A stretch of DNA of 41,413 bases from a virus. Taxonomy: Duplodnaviria; Heunggongvirae; Uroviricota; Caudoviricetes. Both the position numbers and the translations under genes were made by a program. The stretch lies in the IMG/VR virus record IMGVR_UViG_2541047940_000004, positions 1 through 41,413 of that record. One strand, written 5' to 3'. Below, piece by piece: positions 3,570-30,769 of this stretch. Under the pieces are notes generated by a model. That model searched no databases. It was not told the origin of the DNA and saw only the letters and a program-made list of their open reading frames with translations. Within the stretch, counting starts at the first letter, position 1. Each line of letters starts with the position of its first letter.

Positions 3570-4538
3570 TCAGTAGTTATGTACTGAAGGAGGTAATTCT
3601 TTATTCTTAAGTCTTATCCATGCGGAAAGATTCGTTGGTCCGTCTGGCTCATTGATATCAACATCTCGTGTGTGGTTGATTAAAACGTCTCTCGCCATTC
3701 CGATAACATACGAGAATTCATGACCGTAGTCGTAGCATCTGCCGGAATAGTTCGATTGAATTTGTTTCAGCGCCGGATACAATTCGCGGAATAATGCCTG
3801 TGAGCGGTTGGCATAATCCCATAACCATACAAGGCTGTTTGCTTCTTTTGCAGAAAGCTCGTTTGCTTTCTTCTCTTGTTTGCCGATTAACTCGCCTTCA
3901 AGCACTACCCTGTGGATGTACTCTACGGCTTGCGGTATCTGAGATGCATCAAGCTCTTCAATACTTTCCACATTGAAACGCTGATGAATCATTGCATAAG
4001 CTTCTGGGTACATTAGATGCTTTTTGCTGACTAGCATATTTACAGCATCACGAAGCGGAGTCCTGTCATCAACAGATGTTTTCTTACGTGCATTTTCTGC
4101 CTTTCCCTTTGTCCAGTAGTCATGCAGTACAGTAAAGCATTCTTCCTGGTACTGAATCAGTTTATCACGGATGTCAGCACGAACTTTCTCAGGGTTGATG
4201 CTGATCAGCCATCCATTTAACTTCTTCAAAGGAAGGCATAGTAGCTTACGAAGCTTCCCATCAGCGGCAACCATGTTCATATGAACACAGTTGAATTTGC
4301 TAATCTGCTTCATGAGTTTTGTTTGCTGCGTTGACCAGCTCATTCCAAGGTTTTCAACGATTGGCTTCATCGCAACATATGCAACTCCGGCAGCCATGGC
4401 GGTGATAATTTGCTGACCGTTGAATGGTACATAAGAGGTGTTCACTGCTTCTAAAATTGCTATACTATTCATGTTGGTTTTTCTCCACGGATTTACTGAC
4501 AACCGAAGCCCTGACTGTTCCCGCAGTTGGGGCTTCAC
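3570..4538 (-). CDS. ant: Antirepressor Ant
   Basis: Position downstream of arc in the immI operon; ORF start at 4538 overlaps the stop of the upstream ORF (ATGA); alternative start at 4472 (MNSIAIL..., preceded by GGAG) gives 300 aa, the size I recall for P22 Ant. Confidence 0.8.
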
Positions 4539-4756
4539 TGTTTTTGTAAGTCACTGTAGTTATAAAGCCACTGACCACTCATTCTTGCTTTGATTGACTC
4601 TACTGAATCACGGCAAGGAATGATTCCACCTGACATCATTCTGATCTCCGTAAATTCACCGCTCCTTATCGACTCAATGCCATTAACGTTAACTAAAGAT
4701 TTACCTCTACCAAGTGCATTCTCATAGCCAATCTCATCAACCTCAATAAACCTCAT
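4535..4756 (-). CDS. Hypothetical 73-aa protein inserted between arc and ant
   Basis: ORF with ATGA overlap to the arc stop and to the ant alternative start; AGGGG-type RBS upstream; no P22 counterpart at this position as far as I recall. Confidence 0.5.
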
Positions 4757-23265: not shown

Positions 23266-23341
23266 TGGTGCTGGTTAACGGACTTGAACCGCTACCCATT
23301 CGCTTACAAGGCGACCGCTCTACCATTGGAGCTAAACCAGC
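23266..23341 (-). tRNA. Phage-encoded tRNA-like gene, anticodon UGU (Thr)
   Basis: Hand-folded cloverleaf: 7-bp acceptor GCTGGTT/AACCAGC, D-stem GCTC/GAGC, anticodon loop CUUGUAA (U33, A37), T-arm AGCGG-TTCAAGT-CCGTT, discriminator A plus CCA; one G-A mismatch at the base of the anticodon stem. Confidence 0.6.
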
Positions 23342-23346
23342 ATATT

Positions 23347-23421
23347 TGGCGGGACAGCGTGGACTCGAACCACGATAAGAAGGTTAACAGCCTTCCGTAA
23401 TGACCTTTATACGACTGACCC
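23347..23421 (-). tRNA. Phage-encoded tRNA-like gene, anticodon GUU (Asn)
   Basis: Hand-folded: acceptor GGGTCAG/CTGTCCC (one U-U mismatch), anticodon arm GAAGG-CUGUUAA-CCTTC, T-arm CGTGG-TTCGAGT-CCACG, CCA end; D-stem imperfect. Confidence 0.5.
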
Positions 23422-27473: not shown

Positions 27474-28850
27474 TCATACGTCAGCCCCTTGTGCATATCG
27501 TCTGCCACGTGCAGCGGGTGCATTTGATGCTGTGCAAATCTGTCTGGCTTCATCCTGGTCACATGCAACAAAGTGTCCGTTACAGAACCGCTGGTAAACC
27601 GTACCAAGTGAGCCAAAACGGTTTTTCGTCACGATGATTTCAGCAAATGGCGCGGCGCTACTGTTCTCGTCATATACCGCTTCCCGATAGAGCATGATGA
27701 TTGAGTCTGCGTCCTGCTCAATGCTTCCTGAATCACGCAAATCTGCGTTTGTCGGGCGTTTGTTTGGTCGCTTCTCAACATCGCGCGAAAGCTGACTCAG
27801 GGAGATAACAGGCGTTTTCAGGTCTTTCGCCATCGCCTTCAGGCTTCCTGAGATGTGAGCAATTGCGAGGTCGTTGCGGTCTGCTTTCGGCTTCTCAATC
27901 AGGCCAAGATAATCCGCCATGATGAGTGACAGGTTTGGATTTTCCTGTTTGTGCCGCTCTGCGATTGAGCGAATTTCTTCTACCGATAACCGCGAGGCAT
28001 CGACTACCCATACATCCAAATCTGCAAGCTGACTCATGCCGTTAGCAACACGCGCCCAGCCTTCGTCATCCATCGATGCAGGATTTCGCAGTACGCTAAC
28101 CGACATCCTCCCGGCGTTGGCAATGCTTCGCTCTGCAATCTGCAATGCGCTCATTTCCATTGAGAAAATCAATACCCCGCGCCGGACGTCAGAACCAGGA
28201 ATAACGCGGCTTGCAACGCCTTCGGCAATCTTCAGCGCCAGTTCGGTTTTCCCCATACCAGGACGAGCAGCGATTATCACCAGGTCTTCCGCGTTCATCC
28301 CTCCGGTGATGGCATCAAGTTCTTCGATTCCGGTCTTCAGGGTATCTGACTCTTCTCCGTTCCTCAGACGCCTGTCAAGCGTGTCAGTGTAGTCGGTGAT
28401 GATTTCCCCTAACCGTACCGGTTTAACCTCGTCACGGGGCTTTCTGATGGCTGAAAGACGCTTTACAAGCTCATCCATCGCCTGACTCGATGCGTCGATG
28501 GTTCCGCTCTGAATTGGTTCACGCATTTCGTCCATGATTTCCAGCACCAGACGGCGGTGATAGTTATCCGCGACCATTCCAGCATATCCCTTCAGGTTTG
28601 CGGCGCTCGGGCAGTTTTTGCTGGTCATCAGGATTGACGTGAAATGCTCCTCTCCGCACGCCTCGGCAACCATCAGCGCGTCGATTAGGTTTCTGTTTCT
28701 CGCCTGCTTGCGGATAACCTCGAAGGCTTTCCGGTAGAGCGGAATTGAAAACGCTTCCGGCTCAAGCGTTGCCAGAACGTCACTGGCAGTTGGTGTTAAT
28801 CCACCAATCAGCAGGCCACCGATAACGCTCGCTTCGATATCCTGTCTCAT
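27474..28850 (-). CDS. Replicative DNA helicase, DnaB family (P22 gene 12-like)
   Basis: 458 aa; Walker A ARPGMGKT; N-terminal DnaB-like domain; downstream of O-like gene. Confidence 0.9.
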
Positions 28851-29794
28851 GCTATCCCCCTGTCTGCAAACTTCCCTTCCCGTACTCCCGTTAACGAGTC
28901 TTCCCTCAGCAGGTAATCAAAATCAGCCGTCCAGCCCGTGTCGTTGTCTCCGAAGTAAAACGGCTTGGCCTGATGCACAAACGCCCTGACATACGCTCTG
29001 AAACCGTCCACGTTTGGCGTTTTCAGTTGCGGAATGATTTTCTTCAGGCGACGTTTGCGTTTCTCGTTGACCGCAACAGCGTGTGGCAGTCTGTCACCGA
29101 CTTCGGTGTTGTAGGCGTTCAGGAAGGATTCGTAGTCGATGCGTTCTGCCTTGCGACGTTCAGGTTTAACCTGCCCATCGCCTCCCCCATTGGGGGGTAG
29201 GGGGGTATTATTTATATTCTTGTTAATACCTTCTTGTTCATGATGTGCGGTTGTTTGTGCGGCTTCATGTGCGCTTTCATGTGCGGCATGTACGCTGAAT
29301 GCCGCGCCATTACTGGCTTCATCATGTGCGGCATCATGTGCGGTTGTTTGTGCGGCTTCATGTGCGGGTAAATTGTCCATTTTTTGAGCATATTCATAGT
29401 AATTTGTGATGGTTATCACACGACCTTTTTGCTTCTCTCCATCAATGGAGATCATCCCCTCTTTCACAAAAACCTGAAGCATCCGCTCAACCTGATCACG
29501 GCTTGCTGGCTTGCCATGCCTGTCGCATAACTGAAGACCTAAATCAGCTGCTGTCACAACCAGTTGACCGGGTTGCAGATGCCATTCATGACCTTTGAAA
29601 TTCGCTTTGTATGGCTTTCTGGCGGCATTCAGGAGAAGGTTTTCCCACAGGGTGCGAAGATAAACATCTTTCGCCCATGACTGTTTCAGAATGCTCCGGT
29701 ACAACGGAATGTAACCAGTTTTCTGGTTCTCCATCCTGTTGCTCCTGCGCTCGTGTGCGGCGCTGAAATCGTAGATTTTTGCTGTATTGCTCAT
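28847..29794 (-). CDS. Replication initiator O-like protein with internal repeat linker
   Basis: 315 aa; position between cII and helicase; His/Ala-rich repeats ([19 protein letters not shown]...) encoded by tandem DNA repeats. Confidence 0.7.
29239..29365. repeat. Tandem ~12-bp repeats within O-like gene (candidate origin iterons)
   Basis: Units such as ttgtttgtgcgg / cttcatgtgcgg recur about 8 times; a roughly 33-bp block is duplicated at about 29230 and 29326; an AT-rich stretch lies at about 29205-29230. Confidence 0.5.
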
Positions 29795-29796
29795 AA

Positions 29797-30069
29797 CTAC
29801 CTGCCTTGACGAAAGACCTTAAGAACATCGTTAAACTGACTTACGGATATGTCTTCTTTGAGCAGCTTTTCCAGAAATGCGTTTGGAATGAACGTATATC
29901 CCTCCTCTTTTGGTAGAGACGGGAGCAACGCCCTCGCCTCAGCCTTCAGAAGCTCAGTTCTGGCAACTTTCACAAAAGAGATTTGAGTTCTTTCATCAAT
30001 GGAACGAAGGAAGCGCAAACGCTTAGCTTCTTTGTGTGTATCAGGTGGATTAAAGCCTTTGTTTCGCAT
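29797..30069 (-). CDS. Hypothetical 90-aa protein between cII-like and O-like genes
   Basis: Start at internal Met MRNKGFNPPDTH... with GAGGT RBS; stop overlaps O start (ATGA); the longer track ORF 29797-30234 overlaps cII and is rejected. Confidence 0.5.
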   Translation of the reverse strand: MRNKGFNPPDTHKEAKRLRFLRSIDERTQISFVKVARTELLKAEARALLPSLPKEEGYTFIPNAFLEKLLKEDISVSQFNDVLKVFRQGR

Positions 30070-30091
30070 ATAATTACCTCGCTGGATGTTG

Positions 30092-30388
30092 TTAAAATTC
30101 CATTTGTATTTGATCAGAACGCTCGGTTGCCGCCGGGCGTTTTTTATTGGTGAGTCCATCAAGCGCATACTTAAAAGCCCTGCTAATCGGACTGATGTCT
30201 GATGCCATTCCGAAAGCACACAAGACCGAAGCAATAAATCTCCAGTCCGTTCTGCTTATCTTCGATTCATGATAGCCAATCATCTTTGCCAACCCGCGCT
30301 GGGTAAGCGTTGACAGGTTGATGAGTAAATCAGTTTCAGCGCGATCAATTTCTCGCTGTGTTGGCTTGCTGTAGCTTGCTTGTGCCAT
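30092..30388 (-). CDS. CII-like transcriptional activator (P22 c1 homolog)
   Basis: 98 aa; C-terminus TNKKRPAATERSDQIQMEF matches the lambda CII C-terminus from memory. Confidence 0.8.
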   Translation of the reverse strand: MAQASYSKPTQREIDRAETDLLINLSTLTQRGLAKMIGYHESKISRTDWRFIASVLCAFGMASDISPISRAFKYALDGLTNKKRPAATERSDQIQMEF

Positions 30389-30689: not shown

Positions 30690-30769
30690 AGACTCGCTCC
30701 GAAATTAAAGAACACTTAAATTATCCACCAAAGGAATCTTAAGTCAAGTTTATTTAAGATGTCTTAACT
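30690..30769. promoter_or_regulatory. OR operator / pR-pRM region between cro and c2
   Basis: P22-type operator palindromes ATTTAAGATGTCTTAACT (30752-30769) and ATTAAAGAACACTTAAAT (30703-30720); minus-strand TTGACT-17 bp-GATAAT promoter ahead of cro. Confidence 0.7.

Follow-up and report, generated by a model that had tools for sequence, protein, structure and literature searches.

Introduction

Close to the middle of its own gene, the replication initiator O of phage lambda binds four inexact ~20-bp repeats (PMC8022706), and it is the N-terminal 162 residues of the protein that bind the origin (PMC2629481). Gene 18 of P22 carries four different ~20 bp repeats, and gene 18 of phage L carries six imprecise 11-bp repeats that have been described as 'likely the origin' (Zaworski et al. 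2021, PMC8022706). Here we describe an array of 12-bp direct repeats inside the O-like gene of a tailed phage (Caudoviricetes; IMG/VR record IMGVR_UViG_2541047940_000004, positions 1 to 41,413), the whole 41,413-nucleotide stretch being referred to hereafter as the window. Judged from sequence, the repeats are very probably the initiator's own binding sites, and the array an iteron-type phage replication origin. Because of the comparisons with phage L and P22, we regard it as a new specificity variant of a recognised, largely predicted class: the layout is ordinary for lambda-like phages, the version in this O type is previously unannotated, and we found no paper or annotation describing the array for it.

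The N-terminal domain of gp18 of phage L (and ST64T) is a distant homologue of the one encoded here (hhalign probability 95.5%, E=1.4e-8, 110 columns, 25% identity), and the two loci share a plan, 3 x 11 + 33 + 3 x 11 bp and then AT-rich DNA in phage L, 4 x 12 + 33 + 4 x 12 bp in the window. In phage L the array likewise lies inside the initiator gene (gene 18), upstream of a DnaB-type helicase gene. Its 33-bp spacer (AACACCAGTAATGACGCGGCTCACAGCAAATGT) carries CCAGTAATGACGCGGC, and CCAGTAATGRCGCGGC is common to both spacers, whereas its units (TGTCCAACGGA) are 11 bp long, grouped 3 + 3 rather than 4 + 4, with an unrelated core, and its protein, unlike that of the window, falls below the Pfam threshold for Phage_rep_O. 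The phage L origin is itself only predicted, and is entered as a putative origin (rep_origin) in MW013503.

The likeness to lambda lies in a candidate origin in the middle of the initiator gene, in initiator-bound repeats followed by an AT-rich region, in the shared Pfam family, and in the Klebsiella and Yersinia relatives of the N-terminal domain, whose partner gene is of the lambda P family. The lambda repeats, however, number four and measure ~18-20 bp; those of the window are eight direct repeats of 12 bp, split into two blocks by a G+C-rich spacer. Lambda O recruits host DnaB through P, whereas the window phage encodes its own DnaB-type helicase. P22 and HK97 share the C-terminal domain of the initiator (60.5% and 97.6%, respectively), a DnaB-type helicase as the next gene, and the same AT-rich stretch and CCCCCTTACCCCC..GGGGG element after the repeats; in the P22virB-3 record the equivalent stretch of gene 18, through the CCCCC..GGGGG element, is annotated as rep_origin 'similar to phage lambda'. 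They differ in having longer repeats at ~23-bp spacing (TCGGTAAAAC in P22) and in lacking the central 33-bp spacer motif.

Anatomy of the array

The original prediction, made from the letters of the window, placed about eight tandem 12-bp copies and a ~33-bp block repeated ~96 bp apart, flanked by AT-rich DNA, in the linker region of an O-like gene, and took them for a likely origin. Eight units are indeed present, at coordinates needing small corrections, but they form two blocks of four and are not contiguous; the duplicated block also exists, as an exact 31-bp repeat at 29243 and 29336 (offset 93 bp), with one copy per cluster. The placement in the linker was borne out, the array lying between the N- and C-terminal modules of a 315-aa Phage_rep_O open reading frame (ORF). 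The parts of the locus are as follows.

28847-29794, minus strand: O-like replication initiator gene, 315 aa (listed ORF; Pfam, PHROG and annotated relatives)
29371-29794, minus strand: N-terminal domain coding region, aa 1-141, predicted winged helix-turn-helix (AlphaFold model, fold matches)
29321-29368, minus strand: putative iteron cluster 1, promoter-proximal, four 12-bp direct repeats with core CGCACAT/A (in-frame parse)
29288-29320, minus strand: spacer of 33 bp, constant in length (the same in 33/33 homologous loci parsed and in phage L)
29240-29287, minus strand: putative iteron cluster 2, four 12-bp direct repeats (in-frame parse)
29205-29239, strand unassigned: AT-rich stretch of 35 bp, purine-rich on the coding strand, candidate DNA unwinding element (GC content, homologues)
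29181-29204, strand unassigned: G/C-rich element, a CCCCC...GGGGG inverted repeat, CCCCCTACCCCCCAATGGGGG, encoding PLPPNGG (sequence, relatives)
28850-29227, minus strand: C-terminal domain coding region, aa 190-315 (tblastn)

Read on the coding strand, cluster 1 (29368-29321) comprises CCCGCACATGAA GCCGCACAAACA ACCGCACATGAT GCCGCACATGAT, and cluster 2 (29287-29240) comprises GCCGCACATGAA AGCGCACATGAA GCCGCACAAACA ACCGCACATCAT. The proposed check with a tandem-repeat finder returned period-12 arrays (Tandem Repeats Finder, 29256-29287 and 29320-29367); the repeat finder reported one four-copy family and, over 29100-29450, no inverted repeats, and the units are without dyad symmetry. The heptamer TGTGCGG occurs 10 times in the window, against ~5 expected, and 7 of these occurrences fall inside the 124 bp of 29244-29367. 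Outside the arrays the core is found at background frequency (11 seen and 12 expected in 200 kb), while each array holds 3-8 copies of the 7-mer. A further core copy near the start of O (29754-29760) was set aside, as its frequency across homologues is at chance level. The promoter and terminator scan gave a single item inside the array, a weak terminator-like match caused by the repeats, and Rfam gave nothing there. Nor is this a CRISPR (clustered regularly interspaced short palindromic repeats) locus, as had already been argued: contiguous, in-frame 12-bp units inside an intact ORF stand against repeats of 24-48 bp with unique spacers outside genes.

The AT-rich flank was likewise correctly recognised. 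At 21% GC, against 46% for the window, 29205-29238 belongs to the lowest 0.3% of 34-mers in the window; a counterpart (GAACAAGAAGGTAATAACAAGAATA...) is kept in all homologues, and P22 and HK97 are AT-rich at the same position. The G/C-rich element beyond it marks where the AT-rich stretch meets the C-terminal domain, is common to P22, HK97 and several other O-like genes, and is covered by the rep_origin annotation of the P22virB-3 record. The Klebsiella and Yersinia homologues, with their lambda-type C-terminal half, are without it. The element may serve as a G+C clamp for the unwinding element, or as a joint at which modules are exchanged by recombination.

The last 9 bp of the spacer (29288-29296, coding strand AGCGTACAT) are a near-copy of the core, 3 bp off the register of cluster 2. 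Many close relatives have a perfect AGCGCACAT at the spacer end, a possible ninth site, which more distant genera are without.

Selection on DNA rather than peptide

Homologous arrays were collected at two depths: 36 prophage loci, one genome per species, with N-terminal identities of 47-87%, and a close set of 80 near-identical viral contigs drawn from 410 viral-contig relatives. A single-sequence genome scan found nothing, and the loci were yielded by an alignment-based scan. Unit statistics were taken from 190 units in 30 non-redundant loci, whose N-terminal domains are 65-81% identical to that of the window. Across these units the reading frame is xCC GCR CAT xxx and the core CGCRCAT, with the following behaviour at the informative positions.

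Unit position 1, first codon position: nearly random (0.21 bit), the amino acid varying among P, A, T, S and G
Unit position 3, third codon position: C in 190/190
Unit position 6, third position of the Ala codon: A 134, G 56, C or T 0
Unit position 9, third codon position: T 168, A 19, C 3

The Ala codon of the units is thus GCA or GCG only, while elsewhere in the N-terminal domains all four Ala codons are used (85/90/61/101), and His is encoded by CAT in 168 units and CAC in 3, as compared with 38 and 12 in the N-terminal domains of the same genes. As a control, none of 12 fixed four-fold-degenerate columns of the N-terminal domain has an invariant third base, and the mean major-allele frequency there is 0.56. 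Positions 3-9 of the unit are fixed, and positions 10-12 and 1 differ between units. A core that stays frozen while the encoded residue changes, among synonymous sites that are otherwise saturated, is the signature of a DNA site, and the repeats thus appear to be selected as DNA sites, not as codons. The original prediction had named conservation at the amino-acid level only as the pattern that would speak for a mere linker; the opposite is seen, with amino acids varying around a fixed DNA core.

The geometry is equally constrained. All 33 of the 33 'Ala-His' loci follow n x 12 + 33 + n x 12 bp, with n being 3 or 4 and equal on both sides, and in 77 near-identical relatives we counted 43 array haplotypes, every one of them 129 bp long, which differ mainly at positions 1 and 10-12 of the unit and towards the right of the spacer. 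That the length never varies argues against a slippage-prone, functionless repeat, which would change in copy number.

Co-inheritance and covariation with the N-terminal domain

The O-like protein matches Phage_rep_O over aa 20-132 (Pfam, E=2.9e-15; score 57 bits, cutoff 28.7) and is also matched by PHROG 345, 'replication initiation O-like' (E=1.6e-100). Its gene is 98.6-98.8% identical at the DNA level to those of phages Gally and CUS-3, whose records call the product O or replication protein, and 97.8% identical to those of many Shiga toxin 2a (Stx2a)-converting phages. The array encodes aa 143-185, between modules that have separate relatives. In tblastn searches of phage genomes, aa 3-143 gave identities of 80-81% in Klebsiella, 74.5% in Yersinia and 47% in Enterobacter phages, and aa 190-315 gave 97.6% to HK97 O and 60.5% to P22 gp18, the N-terminal parts of which have no detectable match to that of the window in the same searches.

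The Klebsiella and Yersinia phages have only the N-terminal domain in common with the window (74-81%); their C-terminal half is another, and in place of the helicase the next gene belongs to the lambda P family (Pfam E=5e-60). They nonetheless retain the core, spacing and spacer of the window, in 4 + 4 units in Klebsiella and 3 + 3 in Yersinia. HK97 and P22, which have only the C-terminal half in common, carry different repeats. Since the repeats are kept in the former pair and differ in the latter, they belong with the N-terminal DNA-binding module.

More specifically, the base at unit position 6 is uniform within a genome, two single-unit exceptions aside, and divides the loci into 21 of A-type and 9 of G-type. 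Residue 100 of the initiator is Asp in 21/21 A-type loci (CGCACAT) and His in 9/9 G-type loci (CGCGCAT), and residue 82, which is Ala or Pro in A-type and Ser in G-type, separates them just as perfectly. In the AlphaFold model (24 homologues; mean predicted local distance difference test score, pLDDT, of 77), helices 82-88 and 99-111 are followed by a beta hairpin at 115-129, which we read as the predicted helix-turn-helix and wing of a winged-helix domain; residue 82 begins the first of these helices, and residue 100 the second, the predicted recognition helix. The Protein Data Bank (PDB) holds no sequence relative of the protein. In locus L018 the first half of the protein is nearest to the A-type window (87%) and the second half nearest to G-type loci (90%), and the repeats are G-type; in L022 and L024 the types are not separated by overall similarity, but are by residues 82 and 100. 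Distant subfamilies (45-51% identity) keep a 3 x 12 + 33 + 3 x 12 geometry with other cores (CCGATGAACC, CGTCGAAGGT/GTGACGAGCC and GAGGTAACA), and the peptides encoded by such sister subfamilies are entirely different (PDEPCDKPSD, GVEGSDEPPVE, EVTKQVSNEVT).

Weighing the alternatives

The suggestion of a likely origin, as in lambda, is supported by the position of the array, its AT-rich flank, its conservation at the DNA level, its fixed geometry and its co-change with the N-terminal domain. Several observations nevertheless count against reading the array in this way. Among the database matches listed (the best 40 and the best 60 of 122), no origin is annotated at this place, only protein-coding genes. 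The best Foldseek matches of the model, all of them winged-helix DNA binders, are weak (E >= 0.015). Lambda iterons have internal dyad symmetry and bind O dimers, unlike the units of the window, which are direct, abut one another and are free of dyads. The Ala-His dipeptide is itself conserved, and some protein-level constraint is therefore possible. Exchange between repeats evidently occurs, to judge by the identical 31-bp block, and could inflate uniformity within a genome. Finally, the covariation of A/G with Asp/His may rest on one or two evolutionary events, and with so few independent events it is supportive, not conclusive.

Three other accounts of the repeats merit consideration alongside that of an origin. 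It is very unlikely that they merely encode a low-complexity, His-rich flexible linker (AHxxAHxx) whose DNA regularity stems from recent tandem duplication: the encoded peptide does sit between two folded domains, Ala-His recurs in most homologues, and the 31-bp block present in both clusters shows that duplication or conversion was recent, yet the pattern of variation is the reverse of that left by protein-level selection, with first positions free and synonymous third positions fixed while other synonymous sites are saturated. Moreover, sister subfamilies maintain the 12-bp and 33-bp geometry with unlike peptides, and the Ala codon switches from GCA to GCG in all units of a genome together. 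That slippage and gene conversion at a mosaic recombination joint produced functionless repeats, by neutral concerted evolution, is scarcely credible, even though the array falls exactly at the boundary of N- and C-terminal module exchange between phages and tandem repeats homogenise easily. Slippage predicts copy-number polymorphism, whereas the 43 haplotypes of 77 relatives share one length and the clusters are always equal in units; conversion would homogenise whole units, whereas positions 10-12 and 1 differ and 3-9 are fixed.

The remaining alternative accepts that O binds the repeats and makes of them an operator or handcuffing (copy-control) array that regulates O, with replication starting elsewhere. 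Plasmid iterons such as those of P1 serve both initiation and control, in the P7 record one set of five RepA iterons is annotated twice, as the incompatibility determinant incC and within oriR, and an array that fires would look the same in computed evidence as one that only titrates. We consider this account improbable, as the array adjoins the most AT-rich stretch of the region and lies where P22 and phage L have their annotated or putative origins, and as no second array of the core is present in the window or in 3.4-kb stretches around 30 homologues.

A model for initiation

If the array is an origin, the winged-helix N-terminal domain of O would bind all eight of the direct 12-bp repeats (CGCACAT), the four before and the four after the 33-bp spacer, and O monomers or oligomers might, by analogy with lambda and P22, coat both blocks at 12-bp spacing. 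The resulting nucleoprotein complex would form on the very DNA that encodes the inter-domain linker of O, and would strain and open the adjoining 35-bp AT-rich stretch, bounded on its far side by the G/C-rich element. We infer that the C-terminal domain of O recruits the helicase, in which case it would deliver the phage-encoded DnaB-type enzyme, the product of the next gene, while transcription from pR would cross the origin site. As DnaA boxes (TTWTNCACA) number only two in the window, both far from the array, the putative origin is not of the DnaA type.

Genomic context

In the direction of transcription the gene order is cI (on the opposite strand), cro, cII, a small ORF, O and a DnaB-type helicase gene, the last two being in the arrangement of P22 genes 18 and 12. 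A candidate pR-like promoter would drive cro-cII-O-helicase transcription across the array.

27474-28850, minus strand: DnaB-type replicative helicase gene, analogue of P22 gene 12, directly downstream of O (Pfam DnaB_C, E=9.5e-78; DnaB N-terminal domain, E=4.5e-13)
30720-30747, minus strand: pR-like promoter, TTGACT-16-GATAAT, between the cI and cro ORFs (consensus scan only)

The ORF between cII and O (29797-30234, minus strand) matches PHROG 2519 in its last 90 residues (E=8e-57) and is placed like P22 orf48. A strong terminator-like hairpin (30116-30143, plus strand) of 12 pairs and then a T run is antisense to the end of cII, on its 3' side, at the place of the oop RNA terminator in lambda and P22. 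Elsewhere in the window, an Rfam match to sar RNA (4473-4539, plus strand, 87.7 bits), the antisense RNA of the P22 ant region, supports a P22-like phage, and two adjoining tRNA genes occupy 23269-23341 and 23350-23421 on the minus strand (Rfam).

Many database entries for the initiator (among P0001-P0072) are marked 'partial', with lengths of 146-250 aa, and end in or near the repeat region, which would fit short-read assemblies breaking at repeats. One 2.7-kb record (OR850084.1, our L005) probably carries the wrong organism label: entered as 'Staphylococcus phage SA 1298 Kay' (UNVERIFIED_ORG), it codes for a lambdoid O-like protein of enterobacterial type and for the first part of a DnaB-type helicase.

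A spacer motif shared with unrelated replicons

Within the spacer we recognised a G+C-rich core motif.

29293-29316, minus strand: G+C-rich core motif in the spacer, CCAGTAATGGCGCGGCATTCAGCG on the coding strand (third-position conservation, scans)

In 30 diverged loci the third codon positions of the left two-thirds of the spacer (CCAGTAATGGCGCGGC..) are 87-97% conserved, compared with the background mean of 0.56, and the motif also occurs in the subfamilies with other repeat cores and in phage L. Separate scans of viral contigs for CCAGYAATGRCGCGGC and AATGRCGCGGCYTNYAGCG returned, besides random G+C-rich matches, ~30 distinct contexts; there the motif is longer, A..CCAGYAATGRCGCGGCYT.YAGCG, and sits in or beside other repeat families (L125, 3684-3716; L338, 595-633; L339, ~1495-1520; L340, 340-365; and many of L126-L337). 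These contexts include O-like proteins of at least five repeat specificities, and the replication proteins encoded next to the motif are unrelated, among them helicases (D5-type, AAA_25, DUF927, DUF3987) and primases (Toprim/VapE, Prim-Pol), as the following examples show.

L132: neighbour with Pfam D5_N / Pox_D5 helicase
L152: neighbour with Pfam AAA_25
L230: neighbour with Pfam Prim-Pol and PriCT_2
L231: neighbour with Pfam DUF927
L153: neighbour with Pfam Toprim_3 and VapE
L213: neighbour with Pfam DUF3987
L139: classical Phage_rep_O, with the motif inside the gene
L239: HTH_36, with the motif inside the gene
L128: neighbour with Pfam Rep_3, this being oriR of P1-like plasmid prophages

The annotated oriR of P7 is ordered as RepA iterons, ..GGCCAGACGTGGCGCGGCCTGCAACG, GATC heptamers and DnaA box. 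As in the window, an iteron array there adjoins a G+C-rich stretch with the same motif, GGCCAGACGTGGCGCGGCCTGCAACG in P7 and GGCCAGTAATGACGCGGCTTACAGCG in P1-like variants. The differences are considerable, however, in that the Rep_3 initiator is unrelated, the 19-bp iterons are confined to one side, the origin is DnaA- and Dam-dependent, and it is located outside the initiator gene. The G+C-rich stretch of P1 reportedly acts as a length-critical spacer, a finding ascribed to Brendler et al. in 1991. A 2016 review describes the role of this 'G+C-rich' stretch in the P1 origin core as unclear (PMC5043065).

Among plasmids the motif was found in 760, always in DNA without a listed gene. In ColE2-like Col156 plasmids it has the ColE2-type origin on one side and, on the other, a homologue of the ColE1 primosome assembly site, and in a small Rep plasmid it adjoins AT-rich repeats upstream of rep. 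The region of the ColE1 RNA II to DNA switch (GGAAAAACGCCTGCTACGTGGCCTTCTT) bears only a degenerate, shorter resemblance to it, and a putative pMB1 sequence gave no match to ColE1 within 2 mismatches. Rfam has no family at the motif in 12 sources, and none of the papers searched contains the motif string. Several identities were considered and dropped: ARAGORN finds no tRNA or tRNA-like structure, only tRNA fragments of att sites being nearby; a conserved hairpin shows no covariation; and consensus matches for IHF, Fis, LexA, sigma-54 and gyrase did not withstand inspection of the sequences.

It is possible, if on balance doubtful, that this ~24-bp element is a core shared by the origins of many enterobacterial mobile elements, irrespective of their initiator. 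CTG is the start triplet of DnaG. The motif is asymmetric and carries CTG on its complementary strand, hence the hypothesis, and it is no more than that, of a fixed leading-strand priming or start site, at which the primer would read pppAG(U/C)AAUGRCGCGGC and its 5' end would fall, on the coding strand, at the AG of CCAGTAATGG. The motif might instead be bound by a host factor, or act as a stiff boundary by which unwinding is focused.

In four integrase-bearing islands (L233, ~3700-3800; L187; L137, ~20-130; and L198, ~2235) the motif is at most ~30 bp from a tRNA 3' fragment (att site) and at most ~120 bp from where the integrase gene ends. Possibly these islands have their origins right beside the attachment site; a different role for the motif in this setting is also conceivable.

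Implications

The array places a putative origin in a widespread replication module, that of CUS-3-like and Gally-like P22-type phages and of dozens of Stx2a-converting phages of E. coli O157:H7; recent surveys of the replication regions of Stx phages list the genes and leave iterons unmentioned. The association of Asp100 with CGCACAT, and of His100 with CGCGCAT, amounts to a testable rule of initiator-site specificity, and the n x 12 + 33 + n x 12 rule can be used to locate candidate origins in related prophages. What could prove novel is the spacer motif: if functional, it would link the origins of phages, satellites and plasmids through a shared element that is independent of the initiator.

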